From positions 1-10,386 of IMG/VR virus record IMGVR_UViG_2529292735_000026: a stretch of 10,386 nt of DNA, one strand, 5' to 3'. Every line of letters starts with the position of its first letter. The stretch's first letter is position 1. A program made the position numbers and the translations under genes. The notes beneath the pieces were generated by a model. The model worked only from the letters and a program-made list of their open reading frames with translations. It was not told the DNA's origin and did not search any database. Positions 1 to 10,386 of the stretch are shown here, piece after piece. This DNA is from a virus (lineage: Duplodnaviria > Heunggongvirae > Uroviricota > Caudoviricetes).

Positions 1-369
1 ATGAATGGAATGGTGGAGAAGAATGGCACGCTGTCGAAAAAATCCAGACTGGGCGAAGCGTTCAGCTATGTACTGAATCAGTGGGACGCCCTCTGTTATT
101 ACAGTGATGACGGTCTGGCGGAGGTGGACAATAACACAGCGGAAAGAGCGCTTCGTGCAGTCTGTCTCGGAAAGAAAAATTACGTGTTCTTCGGTAGCGA
201 TCACGGCGGCGAGCGTGGAGCACTGCTGTACGGGCTGATCGGCACCTGCCGACTGAACGGTATCGATCCGGAAGCGTATCTGCGCCATATTCTGAGCGTA
301 CTGCCGGAATGGCCCTCCAACCGTGTTGACGAACTCCTGCCATGGAACGTAGTACTCACCAATAAATAA
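1..369 (+). CDS. IS66-family transposase, C-terminal fragment (5' end lies outside the window)
   Basis: Translation (…KNYVFFGSDHGGERGALLYGLIGTCRLNGIDPEAYLRHILSVLPEWPSNRVDELLPW…) resembles the conserved C-terminal region of IS66-family TnpC transposases as I recall them; ORF runs to the window edge; stop TAA at 367-369. Confidence 0.8.
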   Translation: MNGMVEKNGTLSKKSRLGEAFSYVLNQWDALCYYSDDGLAEVDNNTAERALRAVCLGKKNYVFFGSDHGGERGALLYGLIGTCRLNGIDPEAYLRHILSVLPEWPSNRVDELLPWNVVLTNK

Positions 370-399
370 GCGTCAATACGGTGCTCCGTTGACGCTTAC
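1..399 (+). mobile_element. IS66-family insertion sequence, right end (partial) with terminal inverted repeat at about 370-399
   Basis: Immediately after the transposase stop, 370-399 (gcgtcaatacggtgctccgttgacgcttac) reads in reverse complement as GTAAGCGTCAACGG…, the GTAA-initiated terminus typical of IS66-family IRs; sequence beyond 399 resumes in-frame phage tail-fibre-assembly coding sequence. Confidence 0.7.
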
Positions 400-762
400 G
401 ATAATATCATCCGCTATGTGGAAAAGGATGTGACAGCTATCAGACCGGATGGATTAAGTGTTGTTGAAGTGGCGGATATTACTGCTAACCGACGGGCGGA
501 CATTTCAGGGAACTGGATGTTTAAGGATGGCACAGTGATCAAACGAATTTATACGGCAGAGGAATTGCAACTGCAGGCAGAAAACCGGAAAGCCAGACTT
601 CTTGCAGATGCTGAATCCGTGATTTTGCCGCTAGAGCGTGCTGTCAGGCTGAACATGGCAACAGAGGAGGAGCGCACACGGCTGGAGGCTTGGGAACGCT
701 ACAGCGTTGTGGTCAGTCGTGTGGATCCTGCAAATCCTGAATGGCCGGAAATGCCGCAATAA
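400..762 (+). pseudogene. Tail fibre assembly protein (P2 G-like), 3' remnant truncated by the IS66 insertion
   Basis: Frame is open from the IS junction with no ATG or RBS (only a GTG at 418); translation ends …[34 protein letters not shown], the conserved C-terminal region of phage Tfa proteins (P2 G, lambda Tfa, Mu U); about 120 codons where an intact G-like protein is about 175 aa. Confidence 0.7.
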
Positions 763-948
763 GTTGTATGAACTCTGGTGTGAGCTTACATATCTATGGC
801 ACAGAGTAAAGCCTAATCTGACAGTCCGCTCTGTGCCAGGAGCGGAAGTTGCCAAGAGAACTCTTGCAAAGGTATGATAACGTAGGTGCTAAATAATCAT
901 GAACCATAATAAATTAAAGGTTTTTAAGTTAACTCTATGGCGTTTCTT

Positions 949-978
949 TTGCATGATGATTTTTATTTATTATATAAA
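949..978 (+). promoter_or_regulatory. Putative sigma70-type promoter for the 447-aa cargo ORF (TTGCAT, 18-nt spacer, TATAAA)
   Basis: TTGCAT at 949-954 and TATAAA at 973-978 inside a very AT-rich stretch, about 65 nt upstream of ATG 1043; pattern match only. Confidence 0.35.
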
Positions 979-1042
979 GCTTAAATATACATAATATTTA
1001 GCTTCATTTTTTTAGGTATTTTAAAGATTTAGAGGAATGTGA

Positions 1043-2386
1043 ATGGCTACTTATGCTTCTTATTTACCAGAATCACAAATTATCACTTTGTGCAAGGATT
1101 TCCCAGCGTTTACTGATCCTGAAAAATTAGATGGATTCATTAATCCAGAACAGTTTGGCGTGTTTTTTCATGAGTGGATTCATTTTCTTCACAATATTTC
1201 CACAATTAATGGGTTTTCTATTTTTTGCACGCAAAACATCCTGTGGTCTAATTTTCGCTGGGCAATGGACAATCAGGATGTATGTCTTGGTTCAAATGAC
1301 ATGGATCCAGCACATATCGAATCAAACAAAAATTTTCTCAGTTACATTCGTTCCAATAGGAGTCTGCATAAATGTAACTTACCTTATTATGTAAAAGTAA
1401 ACGACTTGTATTTTGAGGATGCAATAATCCATGACATGGAGGTTGCTGACGGTAGTGTTATATGTACATCATTAATAAAGTGTAGAATTTCTCATTCTGA
1501 AAACAAATACGATCTAGATTTAGGCGTGCTTGAAATACTTGAATCCGCAGCTTTTATGCTTGAATGTAAGTGTATTAATGCGATGAATGGCTTCCCTCAA
1601 GAGGCACCCTTTTATCCGTATCATACTATCAAGGGCTTAGCAGCGAAAATTGCTCCGTCATTAAATGATGAAGATATTATTTGTTGTATGTTAGCTTCTT
1701 TGCAATCTAATAACCCTCCCCAAGTATTATTCAATCTACTACATAAATGTGAATTATTACATTCTGATTGTAGGTATGAACATCTAGTGGCGGAGGTGAA
1801 AAAACAATTAAGCGAACAAGATCAAATAATAAGCGAGTCACTTAATCAAATAATTCAAATGATTCCTGTTGATGAACCGATGGGAAACTTTATCAAGCTT
1901 ACTCTTAACAGAATAAGTAACAATTTGAACTATAGAAAGCAAAAACCGTTTTTTGAGTTAGATATAATAAAAAAAATAGCAGAAAAAACTGAGTTTATGA
2001 ATGAAGTAATACAGAAATTCGGTGGTTGCACTATCATCCAGGTAAGACATGGAGATGATAATGAACCACAGCGTGATATTATGTATGACTTTTGCTTACC
2101 TGAAAATAATGATTCAATTTTATTTGGTTCGAAAATGCTACGCGCTTGTTTTCACTTTATATTTATTCACTTTAAACTTTCTGGTGAAATCATGAAGACA
2201 GAAGAATTAAATATTTCGCCGCGTAATAAATGCCCATTTTATACTGTTTGCTGTGCATCAATTCGAGCTAATAATAGTAATATCTGCGCTGAATCCCCTT
2301 GGAAATCAATGTCTATTGATGACAACAAAGGTTGTTATTATGCAGCAGCGATTAAAGCTACTAACCCACCAGTTTTGCCGGATTAA
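1043..2386 (+). CDS. Hypothetical protein, 447 aa; AT-rich cargo gene in the G-FI (Z/fun-equivalent) slot; HExxH motif near the N-terminus, cysteine-rich; candidate phage-exclusion or defence protein
   Basis: Long uninterrupted ORF; RBS AGAGGAA at 1029-1035 about 7 nt before the ATG; sampled 60-nt stretches are about 23-37% G+C against about 60% in the adjacent sheath gene; followed by a hairpin and an intrinsic terminator; no competing ORF on either strand between 860 and 2640. Confidence 0.85.
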   Translation: MATYASYLPESQIITLCKDFPAFTDPEKLDGFINPEQFGVFFHEWIHFLHNISTINGFSIFCTQNILWSNFRWAMDNQDVCLGSNDMDPAHIESNKNFLSYIRSNRSLHKCNLPYYVKVNDLYFEDAIIHDMEVADGSVICTSLIKCRISHSENKYDLDLGVLEILESAAFMLECKCINAMNGFPQEAPFYPYHTIKGLAAKIAPSLNDEDIICCMLASLQSNNPPQVLFNLLHKCELLHSDCRYEHLVAEVKKQLSEQDQIISESLNQIIQMIPVDEPMGNFIKLTLNRISNNLNYRKQKPFFELDIIKKIAEKTEFMNEVIQKFGGCTIIQVRHGDDNEPQRDIMYDFCLPENNDSILFGSKMLRACFHFIFIHFKLSGEIMKTEELNISPRNKCPFYTVCCASIRANNSNICAESPWKSMSIDDNKGCYYAAAIKATNPPVLPD

Positions 2387-2520
2387 GAATAGTGTTCTAT
2401 CTGATAAATATAAAATATTTAAGGTCAGGTCTGCTTATCGCTCAAAGCAGACTGTCAGATTTGATAACGTTTGGGCTATGTAAACCGTCAGTTGGAAAAT
2501 GAGTGAGTGCAAGTCAGGAC

Positions 2521-2548
2521 AGGCGGGCGGATTGCCCGCCTTTTCTTT
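2521..2548 (+). terminator. Rho-independent terminator downstream of the cargo ORF
   Basis: Perfect 8-bp GC-rich stem aggcgggc (2521-2528) / gcccgcct (2534-2541), 5-nt loop, followed by TTTCTTT. Confidence 0.6.
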
Positions 2549-2549
2549 A

Positions 2550-2640
2550 TCTGTTGTTTCATCCACTGACCAGCCAGGTCAAATAGCGCCTCATGCTCTG
2601 CACAACAGAAAATAGTTGCACCCATTAACCACGGAGTTAA
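2550..2640 (+). promoter_or_regulatory. Putative Ogr-dependent late promoter (P_F equivalent) upstream of FI
   Basis: Positional analogy to P2 P_F. A TGT-N12-cCA element (2555-2572) is a one-mismatch match to the TGT-N12-ACA dyad I recall for P2 late promoters, centred about 80 nt upstream of the FI ATG; no convincing -10 hexamer identified. Confidence 0.3.
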
Positions 2641-2644
2641 ACGG

Positions 2645-3835
2645 ATGAGTGACTATCATCACGGCGTGCAGGTGCTGGAGATTAACGACGGCACACGCGT
2701 CATTTCCACCGTATCCACTGCCATTGTCGGCATGGTCTGCACGGCCAGCGATGCGGATGCGGAAACCTTCCCCCTCAATAAACCTGTGCTGATTACCAAT
2801 GTGCAGAGTGCAATTGCAAAGGCCGGTAAAAAAGGCACGCTGGCGGCATCGTTGCAGGCCATCGCTGACCAGTCAAAACCGGTCACCGTTGTCGTGCGCG
2901 TGGAAGACGGCACCGGTGATGACGAGGAAACGAAACTCGCGCAGACCGTTTCTAATATTATCGGCACCACTGACGAAAACGGTCAGTACACCGGACTGAA
3001 AGCCCTGCTGGCGGCGGAGTCGGTAACCGGTGTTAAACCGCGTATTCTTGGTGTGCCGGGGCTGGATACCAAAGAGGTGGCTGTTGCACTGGCATCAGTC
3101 TGTCAGAAGCTGCGCGCTTTCGGATATATCAGCGCATGGGGCTGTAAGACCATTTCCGAGGTGAAAGCCTACCGCCAGAATTTCAGCCAGCGTGAGCTGA
3201 TGGTCATCTGGCCGGATTTCCTCGCATGGGATACGGTCACCAGTACCACCGCCACCGCGCATGCCACCGCCCGTGCGCTGGGTCTGCGCGCTAAAATCGA
3301 CCAGGAGCAGGGCTGGCATAAAACGCTGTCCAACGTTGGGGTAAACGGTGTTACCGGCATCAGCGCATCTGTATTCTGGGATTTGCAGGAGTCCGGCACC
3401 GATGCTGACCTGCTTAACGAGTCAGGCGTCACTACGCTGATTCGCCGTGACGGTTTCCGCTTCTGGGGTAACCGTACCTGCTCTGATGACCCGCTGTTCC
3501 TCTTTGAAAACTACACCCGCACCGCGCAGGTGCTGGCCGACACGATGGCTGAGGCGCACATGTGGGCGGTGGACAAGCCCATCACCGCAACGCTGATTCG
3601 CGACATCGTTGACGGCATCAATGCCAAATTCCGTGAGCTGAAAACAAACGGCTATATCGTGGATGCGACCTGCTGGTTCAGCGAAGAATCCAACGATGCG
3701 GAAACCCTCAAGGCCGGAAAACTGTATATCGACTACGACTATACCCCGGTGCCTCCTCTCGAAAACCTGACCCTGCGCCAGCGTATTACTGATAAATACC
3801 TGGCAAGTCTGGTCACCTCGGTTAACAGCAATTAA
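2645..3835 (+). CDS. FI: Contractile tail sheath protein (P2 gpFI-like), 396 aa
   Basis: N-terminus MSDYHHGVQVLEINDGTRVI… and length match P2 FI as I recall it; high G+C; syntenic with the following tail genes. Confidence 0.93.
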   Translation: MSDYHHGVQVLEINDGTRVISTVSTAIVGMVCTASDADAETFPLNKPVLITNVQSAIAKAGKKGTLAASLQAIADQSKPVTVVVRVEDGTGDDEETKLAQTVSNIIGTTDENGQYTGLKALLAAESVTGVKPRILGVPGLDTKEVAVALASVCQKLRAFGYISAWGCKTISEVKAYRQNFSQRELMVIWPDFLAWDTVTSTTATAHATARALGLRAKIDQEQGWHKTLSNVGVNGVTGISASVFWDLQESGTDADLLNESGVTTLIRRDGFRFWGNRTCSDDPLFLFENYTRTAQVLADTMAEAHMWAVDKPITATLIRDIVDGINAKFRELKTNGYIVDATCWFSEESNDAETLKAGKLYIDYDYTPVPPLENLTLRQRITDKYLASLVTSVNSN

Positions 3836-3847
3836 GGAGCCTGACCG

Positions 3848-4366
3848 ATGGCAATGCCGCGCAAACTCAAGTTAATGAACGTCTTTCTGAACGGCTACAA
3901 CTATCAGGGCGTCGCGAAGTCCGTCACGCTGCCAAAACTGACCCGTAAGCTCGAAAACTATCGCGGTGCGGGGATGAACGGCAGCGCACCGGTAGACCTC
4001 GGCCTTGATGACGATGCGCTGTCAATGGAGTGGTCGCTCGGTGGCTTCCCGGATTCGGTTATCTGGGAGCTTTACGCCGCAACCGGTGTGGATGCCGTAC
4101 CGATTCGTTTTGCAGGCTCTTACCAGCGCGACGATACCGGCGAAACGGTGGCCGTCGAGGTGGTCATGCGTGGACGTCAGAAAGAAATCGACACCGGCGA
4201 GGGCAAACAGGGAGAAGACACCGAGTCGAAAATCTCCGTGGTCTGCACCTATTTCCGGCTGACGATGGACGGTAAGGAGCTGGTCGAAATCGACACCATC
4301 AACATGATTGAGAAGGTGAACGGCGTCGACCGGCTGGAGCAACACCGCCGCAATATCGGCCTGTGA
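3848..4366 (+). CDS. FII: Tail tube protein (P2 gpFII-like), 172 aa
   Basis: Sits immediately downstream of the sheath gene with RBS AAGGAG; size and position match P2 FII. Confidence 0.92.
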   Translation: MAMPRKLKLMNVFLNGYNYQGVAKSVTLPKLTRKLENYRGAGMNGSAPVDLGLDDDALSMEWSLGGFPDSVIWELYAATGVDAVPIRFAGSYQRDDTGETVAVEVVMRGRQKEIDTGEGKQGEDTESKISVVCTYFRLTMDGKELVEIDTINMIEKVNGVDRLEQHRRNIGL

Positions 4367-4422
4367 TTTTCATCCGGTCAGCCTGGCTGACCGGTTAACC
4401 CCGATTCAGAAGTGAGAAAACC

Positions 4423-4698
4423 ATGAACAAAGAAAACGTCATTACCCTGGACAATCCGGTCAAACGTGGTGAGCAGGTTATCGAACAGGTCACGCTGATG
4501 AAACCCAATGCCGGGACGCTACGCGGTGTCAGTCTGGCTGCAGTCGCGAACTCCGAAGTCGATGCACTGATTAAAGTGCTGCCGCGCATGACGGCACCGA
4601 TGCTGACCGAGCAGGAAGTCGCCGCGCTGGAACTGCCTGACCTTGTGGCGCTGGCCGGTAAGGTGGTCGGTTTTTTGTCGCCGAACTCGGTGCAGTGA
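4423..4698 (+). CDS. E: Tail assembly chaperone gpE (P2 E-like), 91 aa
   Basis: Short ORF between the tube and tape-measure genes, the conserved position of tail chaperone genes; contains the slippery heptamer T_TTT_TTG at 4671-4677 near its 3' end. Confidence 0.9.
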   Translation: MNKENVITLDNPVKRGEQVIEQVTLMKPNAGTLRGVSLAAVANSEVDALIKVLPRMTAPMLTEQEVAALELPDLVALAGKVVGFLSPNSVQ

Positions 4699-4850
4699 CG
4701 TTTCCGAAAAATCTCTCGGTCGATGACCTGATGGCGGATGTGGCAGTGATATTTCACTGGCCGCCATCAGAACTGTATCCCATGAGCCTGACCGAACTCA
4801 TCACATGGCGCGAAAAGGCGCTCCGGCGAAGCGGAAACACGAATGAGTAA
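4423..4850 (+). CDS. E': gpE+E' fusion made by programmed -1 ribosomal frameshift at 4671-4677 (about 142 aa)
   Basis: The -1 frame is open from the slippery site T_TTT_TTG to a TAA at 4848-4850, overlapping the T start codon at 4843; mirrors the E/E' arrangement described for P2 and the G/GT chaperone of lambda. Confidence 0.75.
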
Positions 4851-7290
4851 CAATGTAAAATTACAGGTATTGCTCAGGGCTGTTGACCAGGCATCCCGCC
4901 CGTTTAAATCCATCCGCACAGCGAGCAAGTCGCTGTCGGGGGATATCCGGGAAACACAAAAATCACTGCGCGAGCTGAACGGTCACGCATCCCGTATTGA
5001 GGGATTTCGCAAGACCAGTGCGCAGCTCGCCGTGACTGGTCATGCACTTGAAAAGGCACGGCAGGAAGCCGAAGCCCTTGCCACACAGTTTAAAAACACC
5101 GAACGTCCGACCCGTGCTCAGGCGAAAGTGCTGGAATCCGCAAAGCGAGCGGCGGAGGACTTACAGGCGAAATATAACCGCCTGACGGATTCCGTTAAAC
5201 GCCAGCAGCGGGAACTGGCCGCTGTGGGAATTAATACCCGCAATCTTGCACATGATGAGCAGGGACTGAAAAACCGTATCAGTGAAACCACCGCACAGCT
5301 TAACCGGCAGCGTGACGCGCTGGCGCGTGTCAGTGCGCAACAGGCAAAACTTAACGCAGTAAAACAGCGCTATCAGGCAGGAAAGGAGCTGGCCGGAAAT
5401 ATGGCCTCAGTGGGCGCTGCCGGTGTGGGGATTGCGGCGGCGGGAACGATGGCCGGTGTTAAGCTGCTGATGCCCGGTTATGAATTTGCGCAGAAAAACT
5501 CAGAATTACAGGCCGTGCTCGGTGTGGCAAAAGACTCCGCCGAAATGGCCGCGCTACGCAAGCAGGCGCGCCAGCTCGGCGACAATACCGCCGCCTCGGC
5601 GGATGATGCGGCCGGTGCACAGATAATCATCGCGAAAGCGGGTGGGGATGTTGATGCCATTCAGGCGGCAACGCCGGTCACGCTGAATATGGCGCTGGCG
5701 AACCGTCGCACGATGGAAGAAAACGCCGCCCTGCTGATGGGGATGAAATCTGCCTTTCAGCTTTCAAACGATAAGGTTGCTCATATCGGGGATGTTCTCT
5801 CCATGACGATGAACAAAACCGCCGCCGATTTTGACGGTATGAGCGATGCGCTGACCTATGCCGCACCTGTGGCAAAAAATGCCGGTGTCAGCATTGAAGA
5901 AACCGCCGCAATGGTCGGGGCGCTGCATGATGCAAAAATCACAGGCTCAATGGCGGGGACGGGAAGCCGTGCCGTGTTAAGCCGCCTGCAGGCACCGACG
6001 GGAAAAGCATGGGATGCACTCAAAGAGCTTGGCGTGAAAACCTCAGACAGCAAGGGAAACACCCGGCCAATATTTACCATTCTGAAAGAAATGCAGGCCA
6101 GTTTTGAGAAAAACCGGCTCGGTACTGCCCAGCAGGCTGAATACATGAAAACTATTTTCGGGGAGGAGGCCAGCTCAGCCGCCGCCGTGCTGATGACCGC
6201 CGCCTCAACCGGAAAGCTGGACAAACTGACCGCTGCGTTTAAAGCCTCAAACGGGAAGACTGCCGAGCTGGTAAATATCATGCAGGACAACCTCGGCGGT
6301 GACTTTAAGGAGTTTCAGTCCGCTTATGAGGCGGTGGGGACAGACCTGTTTGACCAGCAGGAAGGCGCACTGCGCAAGCTCACACAGACGGCCACAAAGT
6401 ATGTGTTAAAACTCGACGGCTGGATCCAGAAAAACAAATCACTGGCGTCAACCATTGGCATCATTGCCGGTGGCGCGCTGGCGCTTATTGGCATCATCGG
6501 TGCAATTGGTCTTGTAGCCTGGCCGGTTATCACTGGCATCAATGCTATCATCGCGGCAGCAGGCGCAATGGGGGCAATCTTCACGACGGTTGGCAGTGCT
6601 GTTATGACGGCCATCGGGGCGATTAGCTGGCCGGTTGTGGCCGTGGTGGCCGCCATTGTCGCCGGGGCGTTGCTTATCCGTAAATACTGGGAGCCTGTCA
6701 GCGCATTCTTTGGCGGTGTGGTGGAAGGGCTGAAAGCGGCATTTGCGCCGGTGGGGGAACTGTTCACGCCACTTAAGCCGCTGTTTGACTGGCTGGGTGA
6801 AAAGTTACAGGCCGCGTGGCAGTGGTTTAAAAACCTGATTGCCCCGGTTAAAGCCACCCAGGACACCCTGAACCGTTGCCGTGACACGGGCGTCATGTTC
6901 GGGCAGGCACTGGCTGACGCGCTGATGCTGCCGCTTAATGCGTTCAACAAACTGCGCGGCGGTATTGACTGGGTACTGGAAAAACTCGGCGTCATCAACA
7001 AAGAGTCAGGCACGCTTGACCAGACTGCCGCCAGAACTCATGCCGCCACGTATGGCACCGGTGGTTATATTCCGGCGACCAGCTCTTATGCTGGCTATCA
7101 GGCTTATCAGCCAGTTACGGCACCGGCTGGCCGCTCTTATGTGGACCAGAGTAAAAACGAATATCACATCAACCTGACGGGCGGTACTGCGCAGGGGACA
7201 CAGCTCGACCGCCAGTTACAGGATGCGCTCGAAAAATACGAGCGGGATAAACGTGCGCGCGCCCGTGCCAGCATGATGCATGACGGTTAA
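4843..7290 (+). CDS. T: Tail tape measure protein (P2 gpT-like), 815 aa
   Basis: Long ORF with a coiled-coil-like N-terminal part, a Gly/Ala-rich hydrophobic segment (…IGIIAGGALALIGIIGAIGLVAWPVITGINAIIAAAGAMGAIF…) and position after E/E'. Confidence 0.93.
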   Translation: MSNNVKLQVLLRAVDQASRPFKSIRTASKSLSGDIRETQKSLRELNGHASRIEGFRKTSAQLAVTGHALEKARQEAEALATQFKNTERPTRAQAKVLESAKRAAEDLQAKYNRLTDSVKRQQRELAAVGINTRNLAHDEQGLKNRISETTAQLNRQRDALARVSAQQAKLNAVKQRYQAGKELAGNMASVGAAGVGIAAAGTMAGVKLLMPGYEFAQKNSELQAVLGVAKDSAEMAALRKQARQLGDNTAASADDAAGAQIIIAKAGGDVDAIQAATPVTLNMALANRRTMEENAALLMGMKSAFQLSNDKVAHIGDVLSMTMNKTAADFDGMSDALTYAAPVAKNAGVSIEETAAMVGALHDAKITGSMAGTGSRAVLSRLQAPTGKAWDALKELGVKTSDSKGNTRPIFTILKEMQASFEKNRLGTAQQAEYMKTIFGEEASSAAAVLMTAASTGKLDKLTAAFKASNGKTAELVNIMQDNLGGDFKEFQSAYEAVGTDLFDQQEGALRKLTQTATKYVLKLDGWIQKNKSLASTIGIIAGGALALIGIIGAIGLVAWPVITGINAIIAAAGAMGAIFTTVGSAVMTAIGAISWPVVAVVAAIVAGALLIRKYWEPVSAFFGGVVEGLKAAFAPVGELFTPLKPLFDWLGEKLQAAWQWFKNLIAPVKATQDTLNRCRDTGVMFGQALADALMLPLNAFNKLRGGIDWVLEKLGVINKESGTLDQTAARTHAATYGTGGYIPATSSYAGYQAYQPVTAPAGRSYVDQSKNEYHINLTGGTAQGTQLDRQLQDALEKYERDKRARARASMMHDG

Positions 7291-7304
7291 GGAGGTGACG
7301 AAAA

Positions 7305-7784
7305 ATGATGCTCGCGTTAGGTATGTTTGTTTTTATGCGCCAGACGCTGCCACACCAGACCATGCAGCGTGAATCAGATTATCGCTGGCCGTCAAATTCC
7401 TGTATCGGTAAACGGGATGCCTTTCAGTTTCTCGGTGTGGGTGAGGAAAACATCACGCTTGCCGGTGTGCTTTATCCTGAACTGACCGGCGGGAAGCTGA
7501 CGATGACCACGCTCAGGCTGATGGCAGAGGAAGGCCGGGCGTGGCCGTTGCTGGATGGCACCGGCATGATTTACGGCATGTATGTCATCAGCAGGGTGAG
7601 TGAAACAGGGAGTATTTTCTTTGCAGACGGCACACCCCGGAAAATTGATTTTACGCTGTCGCTCACCCGCGTTGATGAATCACTGGCCGCGCTTTATGGC
7701 GATATCGGTAAACAGGCGGAATCGCTCATCGGTAAGGCTGGCAGTATGGCGACTAAATTCACGGGTATGACGGGGGCGGGATAA
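7305..7784 (+). CDS. U: Tail protein gpU (P2 U-like), 159 aa
   Basis: RBS AAGGAGG upstream; syntenic position between T and D; stop overlaps the D start (ATAATG). Confidence 0.9.
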   Translation: MMLALGMFVFMRQTLPHQTMQRESDYRWPSNSCIGKRDAFQFLGVGEENITLAGVLYPELTGGKLTMTTLRLMAEEGRAWPLLDGTGMIYGMYVISRVSETGSIFFADGTPRKIDFTLSLTRVDESLAALYGDIGKQAESLIGKAGSMATKFTGMTGAG

Positions 7785-8947
7785 TGCTGGATGCACTGAC
7801 ATTTGATGCAGGCAGTACGCTGACGCCGGATTACATGCTGATGCTCGACAGCAGGGATATTACCGGCAATATCAGCGACCGTCTGATGAGTATGACCCTG
7901 ACGGATAACCGGGGTTTTGAGGCTGACCAGCTTGATATTGAACTGAACGATGCCGACGGGCAGGTCGGGCTGCCGGTTCGTGGCGCTGTCCTGACGGTGT
8001 ATATCGGCTGGAAAGGTTTTGCCCTGGTATGCAAAGGGAAATTCACCGTTGATGAGGTTGAACACCGGGGCGCGCCGGATGTGGTCACCATCCGCGCCCG
8101 GAGTGCAGATTTCCGCGGGACGCTCAATTCCCGCCGTGAAGGTTCCTGGCATGACACCACGCTCGGTGCGATTGTTGAGGCGATAGCCTCCCGTAACAGG
8201 CTGGAAGCCAGTGTCGCTCCGTCACTGGCCGGAATTAAAATCCCGCACATCGACCAGTCGCAGGAGTCTGATGCGAAATTCCTGACCCGTCTTGCAGAAC
8301 GCAACGGCGGTGAGGTGTCGGTAAAAATGGGAAAATTGTTGTTTCTCAAAGCGGGGCAGGGGGTGACGGCCAGCGGTAAGAAAATCCCGCAGGTCACCAT
8401 CACCCGCAGCGACGGCGACCGTCATCATTTTGCGATTGCTGACCGTGGAGCCTACACCGGCGTAACGGCAAAGTGGTTACACACCAAAGACCCGAAGCCG
8501 CAAAAGCAGAAGGTAAAACTGAAACGCAAAAAGAAAGAAAAACACCTGCGCGCACTGGAGCACCCGAAAGCGAAACCGGTCAGGCAGAAGATAGCGCCCA
8601 AAGTGCCGGAAGCGCGCGAAGGTGAATACATGGCCGGTGAGGCTGATAACGTTTTTGCCCTGACCACGGTATATGCCACGAAAGCACAGGCCATGCGCGC
8701 CGCTCAGGCGAAGTGGGACAAACTGCAACGGGGCGTTGCGGAGTTCTCCATCAGCCTTGCCACTGGTCGGGCTGATATTTACACGGAAACGCCGGTCAGA
8801 GTGTCAGGCTTTAAGCGCGTCATAGACGAGCAGGACTGGACAATCACTAAGGTGACACATTTTCTGAATAATAGCGGCTTCACGACGTCCTTGGAGCTTG
8901 AGGTCAGGCTTTCTGATGTGGAGTACGAAACAGAAGATGATGAGTGA
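7784..8947 (+). CDS. D: Tail protein gpD (P2 D-like), 387 aa
   Basis: Translationally coupled to U; size and position match P2 D; contains a Lys-rich segment (…KPQKQKVKLKRKKKEKH…). Confidence 0.9.
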   Translation: MLDALTFDAGSTLTPDYMLMLDSRDITGNISDRLMSMTLTDNRGFEADQLDIELNDADGQVGLPVRGAVLTVYIGWKGFALVCKGKFTVDEVEHRGAPDVVTIRARSADFRGTLNSRREGSWHDTTLGAIVEAIASRNRLEASVAPSLAGIKIPHIDQSQESDAKFLTRLAERNGGEVSVKMGKLLFLKAGQGVTASGKKIPQVTITRSDGDRHHFAIADRGAYTGVTAKWLHTKDPKPQKQKVKLKRKKKEKHLRALEHPKAKPVRQKIAPKVPEAREGEYMAGEADNVFALTTVYATKAQAMRAAQAKWDKLQRGVAEFSISLATGRADIYTETPVRVSGFKRVIDEQDWTITKVTHFLNNSGFTTSLELEVRLSDVEYETEDDE

Positions 8948-9028
8948 TGTTTTTATTTTATCTATTTGTTTTATAAGGATAAATTAACTAGAATGGCACT
9001 ATCAACAAAACCGGAAGAGGTGCTCGCG

Positions 9029-9247
9029 ATGTTTCATTGTCCTTTATGCCAGCATGCCGCACATGCGCGTACAAGCCGCTATATCACTGACACGACAAAA
9101 GAGCGTTATCACCAGTGTCAGAACGTGAATTGCAGCGCCACGTTCATCACCTATGAGTCGGTACAGAGATACATCGTGAAGCCGGGAGAAGTCCACGCCG
9201 TAAGGCCGCACCCGTTGCCGTCAGGGCAGCAAATTATGTGGATGTGA
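9029..9247 (+). CDS. ogr: Late transcription activator Ogr (zinc-finger), 72 aa
   Basis: Translation MFHCPLCQHAAHARTSRYITDTTKERYHQCQNVNCSATFITYESVQRYIVKPGEVHAVRPHPLPSGQQIMWM matches P2 Ogr as I recall it, with the C-x2-C…C-x4-C zinc finger; ATG 9029 chosen over the upstream TTG (8966) and ATG (8993) because of the GAGG RBS spacing and the canonical 72-aa length. Confidence 0.9.
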   Translation: MFHCPLCQHAAHARTSRYITDTTKERYHQCQNVNCSATFITYESVQRYIVKPGEVHAVRPHPLPSGQQIMWM

Positions 9248-9251
9248 TCAC

Positions 9252-9285
9252 AAAAATAGCCCCTCAGTTGAGGGGCTTTATTTAT
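9252..9285 (+). terminator. Rho-independent terminator after ogr (end of the late/tail transcription unit)
   Basis: 9-bp stem agcccctca (9258-9266) / tgaggggct (9269-9277) with a 2-nt loop, flanked by an A-run upstream and TTATTTAT downstream. Confidence 0.6.
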
Positions 9286-9291
9286 GGTCGA

Positions 9292-9320
9292 TGTGGACGC
9301 TATGTGGACAGCGGTTGACA
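9292..9320 (+). other. Putative integrase arm-type binding sites in attR (direct repeats TGTGGAC-G, TGTGGACA, GTTGACA)
   Basis: Three direct repeats at 9292, 9303 and 9314 with roughly one helical turn spacing; TGTGGACA is, to my recollection, the arm-site consensus of P2 integrase; located between ogr and host DNA where the attR arm is expected. Confidence 0.5.
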
Positions 9321-9375
9321 TAAATCCATTTATATCATCAGGTTAGGTGCTTTTTTGTGACACCATCCCTGTCTT

Positions 9376-9403
9376 CCCCCACATGATGTGGGGGTTTTTT
9401 TTA
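9376..9403 (+). terminator. Strong rho-independent terminator; probably host-derived (possibly the 3' end of the cpxP/CpxQ transcript) or part of the att core region
   Basis: GC-rich stem cccccaca / tgtggggg around a short loop, followed by a T8 run (9395-9402). Confidence 0.65.
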
Positions 9404-9429
9404 TCCTCAATTTGCCTGCTGCTTAATGC

Positions 9430-9456
9430 ATTGCAGATGATTTGCTTCCGTTATAC
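9430..9456 (+). promoter_or_regulatory. Possible fieF promoter (TTGCAG, 15-nt spacer, TATACT)
   Basis: Hexamer match only; spacer is short; about 30 nt upstream of the fieF ATG. Confidence 0.25.
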
Positions 9457-9483
9457 TAGCGTCAGTTGATAGCGGGAGTATTT

Positions 9484-10386
9484 ATGAATCAATCTTATGG
9501 ACGGCTGGTCAGTCGGGCGGCGATTGCTGCGACGGCGATGGCTTCGTTGCTATTGCTGATTAAAATTTTTGCATGGTGGTATACCGGGTCGGTGAGTATT
9601 CTCGCCGCGCTGGTGGATTCGCTGGTGGATATCGGCGCGTCGTTGACGAATTTACTGGTGGTGCGATATTCCCTGCAACCTGCCGACGATAATCACTCGT
9701 TTGGTCACGGTAAAGCAGAGTCCCTCGCGGCGCTGGCGCAAAGTATGTTTATCTCCGGTTCGGCACTATTCCTGTTTTTGACGGGTATTCAACATCTGAT
9801 ATCTCCAACACCGATGACAGATCCAGGCGTCGGGGTTATCGTGACAATTGTGGCGCTAATTTGTACGATTATCCTTGTCTCGTTTCAGCGTTGGGTGGTG
9901 CGCCGGACGCAAAGCCAGGCGGTGCGGGCTGATATGCTACATTACCAGTCTGATGTTATGATGAACGGCGCAATTCTGCTGGCGCTGGGGTTGTCCTGGT
10001 ACGGCTGGCATCGCGCCGATGCTCTGTTTGCATTGGGAATCGGCATCTATATTTTATATAGCGCGTTACGCATGGGATATGAGGCGGTACAGTCATTACT
10101 GGATCGCGCATTGCCTGATGAGGAACGGCAAGAAATTATTGATATCGTGACTTCCTGGCCGGGTGTTAGCGGCGCTCACGATCTTCGCACGCGGCAGTCA
10201 GGGCCGACCCGCTTTATTCAGATTCATTTGGAAATGGAAGACTCTCTGCCTTTGGTTCAGGCACATATGGTGGCGGATCAGGTAGAGCAGGCTATTTTAC
10301 GGCGTTTTCCGGGATCGGATGTGATTATCCATCAGGACCCCTGTTCCGTCGTACCCAGGGAGGGTAAACGGTCTATGCTTTCATAA
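9484..10386 (+). CDS. fieF: Cation diffusion facilitator family ferrous-iron/zinc efflux transporter FieF (YiiP), 300 aa
   Basis: Translation [49 protein letters not shown]… matches E. coli FieF/YiiP as I recall it; RBS GGGAG 5-6 nt upstream of ATG 9484; multiple TM helices followed by a cytoplasmic C-terminal domain; stop TAA at window end. Confidence 0.93.

Follow-up and report, generated by a model that had tools for sequence, protein, structure and literature searches.

An AT-rich single-gene cassette in the Z/fun slot of a P2-like prophage and its putative metal-dependent hydrolase

Among the abortive-infection (Abi) systems, Lit is the textbook metalloprotease, cleaving EF-Tu when triggered by the Gol peptide of phage T4. 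In P2-like phages, the locus between genes G and FI is named the P2 Z/fun hotspot in the literature, and Fun/Z of P2 is a broad Abi system which, when expressed, excludes T5 and many other phages. The open reading frames (ORFs) of this Z region in P2-like coliphages were reportedly the subject of work by Nilsson, Karlsson and Haggard-Ljungquist in 2004, and a study from 2026 documented quick shuttling of defence cargo between unrelated mobile elements, giving no mechanism for it. Here we describe the G-FI slot of a P2-like (Peduovirus) prophage found in a stretch of 10,386 nucleotides (positions 1 to 10,386 of the IMG/VR record IMGVR_UViG_2529292735_000026; the window, in what follows), which represents the right arm of the prophage and adjoins the chromosomal gene fieF. 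The slot is occupied by an AT-rich island with a single gene, here called ORF447 after the length of its product. Our overall reading, to which we assign a probability of roughly 55%, is that of a horizontally acquired single-gene moron, the product of which is probably an anti-phage metal-dependent hydrolase.

An initial, sequence-only reading of the window had proposed a sharply bounded AT-rich island within the tail gene cluster, and this was borne out by sliding windows, a likelihood model and homology breakpoints alike. With windows of 200 bp, a marked discontinuity is evident: the G+C content drops from 0.46-0.57 to 0.25-0.37 within ~800-2500, and is then back to 0.52-0.60. By block, the values are 0.260 for the non-coding part (851-1042) and 0.341 for the ORF (1043-2386), with 0.561 in the tail cluster (2645-8947) and 0.562 in FI, and at third codon positions the island ORF has a G+C content of 0.283 versus 0.61-0.72 in FI, FII, T, U and D. 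When three segments are fitted by maximum likelihood, the log-likelihood exceeds that of a single segment by 130.7 and the breakpoints fall at 868 and 2422; 15 windows of 100 bp inside the island (mean 0.329) differ from the 87 outside (mean 0.544; Mann-Whitney p = 1e-9). In comparisons with seven other P2-like G-FI loci, homology ends at 839-851 (850/851 in five of them) and restarts at 2429-2434. Given this agreement between the shift in composition and the breaks in homology, the island is sharply bounded, with a right edge at ~2428. The limits initially given were 860 and 2520; the former stands, while the latter overshoots by ~90 bp into the conserved P2 backbone, which here (2429-2644) has a G+C content of 0.477. 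Likewise, the upstream stretch said to be extremely AT-rich proved to be so (G+C 0.243 at 860-1040, with A/T tracts visible in 940-1020), whereas FI, put at ~60% G+C, reaches this value in some windows but has 56% overall. A chance fluctuation, or an effect of coding constraint in an ordinary P2 backbone, is refuted as the cause of the step by the likelihood gain, the p-value and the third-position values, and by the coincidence of the composition breakpoints with the homology breakpoints; its probability is negligible. The compositional signal in itself is ordinary, the textbook cargo of a long-known P2 hotspot.

The flanks of the island are present in 1,836 of 5,426 complete Escherichia coli genomes and in 80 phage records; ORF447 occupies the G-FI slot in only 13 of the E. 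coli genomes and in none of these 80 phage records. Other cargo of the same slot includes a restriction endonuclease, a SMEK-domain protein, a DUF4145 protein, a helix-turn-helix protein together with an acetyltransferase, Wphi orf44, P2-EC67 ORF1 and other hypothetical genes, and all seven of the other cargos examined are AT-rich (G+C 0.33-0.43). We therefore consider it very nearly certain that the island is exchangeable moron cargo of the P2 Z/fun slot; its low G+C content would then reflect a foreign AT-rich gene pool, common to all cargo of the slot.

The cassette is also found on unrelated backbones. Window positions 824-2453 recur, at 99.6% identity, in a lambdoid prophage of E. coli H3, where a DUF2254 gene and hokD flank the segment; homology stops inside both hairpin cores (Table 1), and the two copies of the ORF differ by 1 nucleotide. 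In other strains, this lambdoid DUF2254-hokD site holds an S1 peptidase, or ParA and two further genes, again bracketed by elements of the left (L) and right (R) types found at the ends of the window cassette. A third setting is a type IV secretion conjugative element of Sodalis, in which an array is evident, [L]-glyoxalase-LysE-[R] followed by [L]-ORF447 homologue-[R]; the homologue has 75% amino-acid identity, and at 1,583 bp the cassette has the same length as the E. coli H3 copy. Horizontal acquisition of a moron, as first proposed from the sequence, is thus well supported by the variable slot, the exact breakpoints and the near-identical lambdoid cassette.

The two boundary arms form an imperfect inverted repeat (815-846 versus 2430-2461; 32 nt, 78% complementary), and both align to the 'left inverted repeat' and 'right inverted repeat' annotated in AJ512685. 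The left arm is kept in P2-like and lambdoid loci even where the cargo that follows is a different one. Conserved hairpin elements of L type (GTCYGCTYTGTGCCARRAGCRGA) and R type (..TCGCTCAAAGCRGAC) bracket unrelated cargo in the P2-like, the lambdoid DUF2254-hokD and the Sodalis element slots. A scan of IMG/VR with the R core retrieved at least 120 viral contigs, with flanks of lambdoid type, P2 type and other classes, and among the matches listed an L-type element lies 0.84-4.2 kb upstream of the R core in 61 of 120 contigs. The hairpins are thus cassette boundaries shared across unrelated mobile elements, and may represent a general cassette-exchange site. Two explanations are conceivable, namely sites of site-specific recombination, in line with the title of the 2004 paper, and short stretches of homology that double as terminators. 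Covariation in the stem was considered as evidence and dropped: among 74 distinct R-type elements, the pairs at one position were C.A (27), C-G (22), T.G (14) and T-A (4), which is ambiguous; the Sodalis copy shows one double change in the stem. The cassette would have entered by recombination at these conserved, hairpin-containing inverted-repeat elements, which also enclose different cargo in P2-like phages, in lambdoid prophages and in a conjugative element.

Table 1. Features of the window, and L/R-type elements in four other loci.
Feature	Position	Strand	Evidence or detail
IS66-family transposase, C-terminal fragment	1..369	+	Pfam DDE_Tnp_IS66 6.5e-19, IS66_C 5e-17
Gene G, P2 tail-fibre assembly, 3' part; left conserved neighbour of the slot	400..762	+	Pfam Caudo_TAP 2.9e-29, PHROG 136
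Conserved left-flank hairpin, 11-bp stem, GGCACAGAG...CTCTGTGCC	797..838	.	RNA fold -21.2 kcal/mol, z = -2.4
Left arm of boundary inverted repeat; outer 10 bp AATCTGACAG	815..846	.	repeat search
L-type hairpin core GTCCGCTCTGTGCCAGGAGCGGA	824-846		inside left arm
Sigma-70-like promoter sequence TTGCCA-N18-TATGAT	849..878	+	10/12 consensus matches
AT-rich cargo, island proper	851..2428	+	1,578 bp, G+C 0.328; composition and homology breakpoints
AT-rich leader, ~160 nt, ~24-26% G+C, A/T tracts	879..1042	+	sequence and composition
ORF447, 447-aa soluble acidic protein, 51 kDa, pI 5.3	1043..2386	+	HExxH 43-47, E167, C397, C403, C415, C431
Right arm of boundary inverted repeat; outer 10 bp CTGTCAGATT	2429..2461	.	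8-bp stem predicted
R-type hairpin core GTCTGCTTATCGCTCAAAGCAGAC	2429-2452		inside right arm
Intrinsic-terminator-like hairpin, 9 pairs (7 G-C), then TTTTCTTT	2521..2551	+	fold -20.6 kcal/mol, z = -3.2
FI tail sheath gene; right conserved neighbour of the slot	2645..3835	+	Pfam Phage_sheath_1, Phage_sheath_1C, Gp18_domIII_N
Tape-measure gene T	4843-7290
L/R-type elements, locus L026	3328-3350, 7001-7023, 8607-8630
L/R-type elements, locus L027	902-924, 2608-2631
L/R-type elements, locus L028	4202-4224, 6963-6986
L/R-type elements, locus L003	6290-6312, 7745-7768, 7787-7809, 9393-9416

Within these boundaries the cassette appears to be self-contained: a moron of ~1.58 kb which would have its own sigma-70-type promoter, an AT-rich leader and a single gene, with a hairpin and a terminator provided by the conserved flank. 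The lambdoid copy has the same putative promoter sequence, and the diverged Sodalis cassette conserves it, in an alignment that includes a palindrome over the -35 element and the spacer; promoter activity is predicted from the sequence. In the window, this near-palindrome reads TTGCCAAGAG-A-A-CTCTTGCAA (849-869, overlapping the -35 and the spacer), and its Sodalis counterpart at the same place is perfect (TTGCCAAA-N5-TTTGGCAA). It is a possible operator, and the cassette contains no regulator gene. A Shine-Dalgarno sequence, GAGGA, is situated at 1032-1036, 6 nt ahead of the ATG of ORF447. The leader also contains a 31-codon ORF (899-994, + strand) for a hydrophobic peptide, MNHNKLKVFKLTLWRFFCMMIFIYYIKLKYT; it lacks a Shine-Dalgarno sequence, and chance occurrence in AT-rich DNA is the probable explanation. 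No other convincing ORFs were found in the cargo on either strand. The terminator-like hairpin belongs to the conserved P2 backbone upstream of FI and is kept in other P2-like loci, so that the order in the conserved flank is R hairpin, terminator and FI. No known RNA from Rfam was detected in 600-2800.

ORF447 belongs to a large and widely distributed family without annotation. The exact sequence is present on 936 contigs, the cluster at 90% identity spans E. coli and Salmonella, and every database copy is labelled 'hypothetical protein'; matches in PHROGs are to families of unknown function only, and a sequence-profile search of the PDB returned coiled-coil noise only. While a word-indexed search recovered 36 clusters, the full profile search yielded 1,034 representatives at 50% identity with E<=1e-3, and 285 with E<=1e-30. 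Full-length members are nearly all 440-500 residues long and match end to end, and their hosts comprise Enterobacterales, Aeromonas, Rheinheimera, Pseudomonas and many Betaproteobacteria, as well as some megaplasmids. Eleven residues are invariant in 66 sequences with identities down to 17% (H43, E44, N51, E167, Y193, R298, C397, C403, C415, W420 and C431), and others are nearly so, including H47 (>=90%), T54, G57, D345, H376 and R408; H43, E44 and H47 are all invariant in 26 closer sequences. Together with a dN/dS of ~0.21 between ORF447 and the Sodalis homologue, this conservation indicates that the gene is functional. By accession, as an HExxH defence system, or in a 2026 P2/P4 study, no prior description of ORF447 was found in the literature.

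The AlphaFold2 model of ORF447 is confident, with a predicted local distance difference test score (pLDDT) of 92.3 and a predicted template-modelling score (pTM) of 0.92. In the model, HExxH sits on a helix (35-53), followed by a five-strand sheet (123-160) and by E167 on a further helix (162-180); the C-terminal half is helical and ends in a cysteine module, whose four invariant Cys residues point to a metal site inside the cell. There is no transmembrane segment, and no signal-like or hydrophobic N-terminus. We refer to ORF447 as a putative metal-dependent hydrolase that carries a zincin-like motif but is assigned to no peptidase family, and treat metallopeptidase chemistry, for which the argument is one of analogy, as a tentative proposal only.

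No neighbour or partner gene is conserved across 14 loci of the ORF447 family, which indicates that the gene works alone, and the G+C content of the gene is below that of the whole locus in 11 of the 14. The contexts include Tn7, conjugative elements and prophages. Directly upstream of one homologue lies Shedu SduA (3e-171), and Lamassu LmuA (6e-68) was also found within a few kb; further neighbours at such distances are an E1-E2/JAB protein, PDC-S39, a PDC-M68A-like nuclease and ApeA-HEPN, a reverse transcriptase with an AAA_15 ATPase, Tn7-like genes and conjugative-transfer genes. By raw count, at least 7 of the 14 loci have known or candidate defence genes within a few kb. Three Enterobacter-type contigs (L004/L005/L006, 7034-7690) encode a protein of 202-218 residues without Pfam match ~300 bp upstream of the ORF447 homologue; it is absent beside homologues elsewhere, and therefore is probably a separate cassette.

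The defence-gene neighbours and the residence in an abortive-infection slot make a stand-alone anti-phage role the most likely function for ORF447, and we put the chances of it being an anti-phage defence protein at about even. In this scenario, ORF447 would be expressed from the prophage as a stand-alone defence protein of abortive-infection type. Its activity would be that of a metal-dependent hydrolase, and most likely of a peptidase, in analogy to Fun/Z from the same slot and to the Lit protein of e14; as with Lit, a phage cue would activate the metal-dependent hydrolysis and the infection would stop.

A number of results weigh against such a role or the mechanism proposed for it. The link to defence is guilt by association, drawn from ~14 loci, and no phage-resistance phenotype has been reported for the ORF447 family. 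Neither ORF447 nor 26 family members have a match in Pfam, NCBIfam or PADLOC, with no PADLOC-DB v2.0.0 family at E<=1 for ORF447 (a library dated 2023), and homologues are present in none of 50,697 sequenced phage genomes. The case for a peptidase comes from the motif: Foldseek searches with the full model gave best E-values of 1.0 against the PDB and 0.6 against BFVD, the N-terminal domain on its own (residues 1-190, pLDDT of its own model 86) reached 0.12 against the PDB, and no hit was significant or a peptidase. Given that no zincin was among the Foldseek matches, ORF447 has not been filed as a zincin, and membership was rejected in view of these E-values and the lack of Pfam and PDB profile matches. 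Homology to Lit and the peptidase U49 family was rejected as well, with an hhalign probability of 0.2% for ORF447 versus e14 Lit, no match to Peptidase_U49 (PF10463) at E<10 for the 26 members, and no Pfam peptidase family at all. The promoter is a consensus match in AT-rich DNA, with 6 promoter-like sites found in the region versus 7.6 expected, and the stem covariation of the boundary hairpins was ambiguous at the single position tested.

Other functions can be envisaged for the same cargo. It shares the orientation of the flanking late operons, and there is no strong terminator between G and the cargo, the left-flank hairpin being without a T-run, as would be expected if the gene served the phage and was transcribed with the late tail operons, be it as a lytic-cycle accessory or as counter-defence (e.g., a protease against a host defence or receptor). 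However, homologues reside in chromosomal islands, Tn7-like and conjugative elements and megaplasmids, beside defence genes, the phage genomes without homologues are those of isolated phages, and the window copy persists in a prophage in which G is disrupted by an insertion sequence (IS), all of which makes a service to the phage quite improbable. A factor for lysogenic conversion or virulence, such as a protease with host tissue as its target or a toxin against other bacteria, would fit the carriers listed, which are avian-pathogenic, enterotoxigenic, Shiga-toxin-type or clinical E. coli and Salmonella, and the label 'putative lysogenic conversion protein' given to slot ORFs by Nilsson and colleagues (AJ512685); moreover, one homologue adjoins an RHS/TcdB-like toxin gene. 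Against this, the protein has neither signal peptide nor transmembrane segment, no linked secretion or immunity gene, and a cysteine cluster pointing to the cell interior, and homologues are common in Betaproteobacteria of soil and water, Aeromonas and Rheinheimera; we consider this alternative improbable as well.

A different kind of alternative concerns expression rather than function. The sequence-only reading had seen in the island a likely target of H-NS silencing, which would make expression conditional. In such a scenario, H-NS would coat the AT-rich leader and the ORF, and the gene would be off in normal growth until the silencing is relieved. Leader (G+C 0.24-0.26) and ORF (0.34) are within the range that H-NS reportedly prefers, according to work by Navarre and by Lucchini in 2006, and the A/T tracts described above would suit it. 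The high-affinity motif TCGWTWAATT, in contrast, is not enriched (2 matches versus 2.5 expected, and 0 in the leader), the near-consensus promoter is conserved across diverged copies, and strong purifying selection speaks for a gene in use. When expressed, Fun/Z protects broadly, and other AT-rich cargo of P2 hotspots is active from native promoters in hns+ E. coli (Rousset 2022). Cargo of this slot must be expressed from the prophage in order to work, and 'silenced' or 'conditional' are therefore speculation. Low G+C, the one line of evidence in its favour, makes H-NS binding plausible on general grounds, with silencing as a possible modulation rather than the explanation of the island; as an account of how the gene normally behaves, it appears rather doubtful.

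With an anti-phage moron as the preferred reading, the novelty lies in the cargo, an unannotated family of ~1,000 clusters with an unmatched predicted structure and a defence-type context. If the defence role is true, it would be a new single-gene defence system, possibly with a new metal-hydrolase fold, and the 1.6-kb cassette with its native promoter provides a cheap and well-defined lead. The second added value is the hairpin-bounded cassette common to P2-like phages, lambdoid prophages and a conjugative element, as the shared boundaries offer a handle on the quick shuttling of defence cargo between unrelated mobile elements. More speculatively, ORF447 could found a single-protein anti-phage family with an unseen fold, combining the HExxH metal site with the four-cysteine cluster, on a promoter-carrying cassette that is swapped by hairpin-directed site-specific recombination among P2-like phages, lambdoid prophages and conjugative elements; taken as a whole, this scenario is improbable.

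The remainder of the window is that of a P2-like right arm. To the left of the slot, the IS66 fragment replaces the 5' part of G, and homology to intact P2-like prophages starts only at ~400; at this junction approximately the first 55 codons of G are gone (window 1-399), and it has 0 matches in the 5,426 complete E. coli genomes. With these N-terminal codons removed by the IS, the prophage is probably defective in tail-fibre assembly. An intact relative with the same gene order and chromosomal neighbour is found in E. coli APEC O2-211, where the full-length G has 528 bp. In that prophage (locus L002, 5928-6713, - strand), a reverse-oriented hypothetical gene is located between a virion morphogenesis gene and the baseplate gene V, an interval which according to the R18C paper is another variable slot of P2-like phages. 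To the right of the island, the order is FI (sheath), FII (tube), E/E', T, U, D and ogr, with fieF following from 9466. Overlapping ORFs at 4423-4698 and 4695-4850 correspond to the usual P2 E/E' tail-chaperone pair, for which a programmed frameshift is expected, and are ordinary. Milder dips in G+C (~0.41) are present at 8801-9100 (end of D, upstream of ogr) and 9301-9500 (ogr to fieF), the latter presumably the prophage end or attachment region.

In comparison with known systems, the protein resembles gluzincin-type zincins in that its HExxH, on a long helix, has an invariant H-E and a near-invariant second His, and in that the invariant E167 (within ILESxA), on a later helix of the model, is a candidate third ligand, but the spacing of ~120 residues and the order of strands and helices are unusual. 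The Lit protease (U49) of the cryptic prophage e14 is likewise prophage-borne, single-gene and cytoplasmic and has HExxH; ORF447 is 150 residues longer, with the four-cysteine C-terminal module, and the two have no sequence or profile similarity. At the level of the cassette, integron attC cassettes are also short and mostly of one gene, with imperfect hairpin-forming repeats between them and the potential to form arrays, as in the Sodalis element. The ends of the ORF447 cassette differ from these in being inverted copies rather than one attC each, and each cassette has what appears to be its own promoter; with no GTTRRRY/RYYYAAC core sites evident in the boundary elements by inspection and no integrase (IntI) in the window, identity with an integron cassette was ruled out.

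The closest described system is the P2 Z/fun locus with its Z-region ORFs (GenBank AJ512685, P2-EC67), with which the window shares the slot and the inverted-repeat boundaries, as well as the layout of one AT-rich gene with a putative promoter of its own just inside the left repeat, in a slot that holds anti-phage genes. The protein itself is unrelated to the other cargo of the slot, for which different families are annotated; versus the 181-residue slot protein of a Peduovirus P2 record, which is not confirmed as the classical Fun/Z, BLASTP gave E = 0.3. Like the lambdoid morons in the sense of Juhala and Hendrix, the cassette is extra DNA between conserved genes, with atypical composition, a promoter apparently of its own and a terminator-like hairpin. 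Unlike these, it ends in conserved hairpin elements common to unrelated backbones, an arrangement more suggestive of a shared exchange mechanism than of ad hoc illegitimate recombination.

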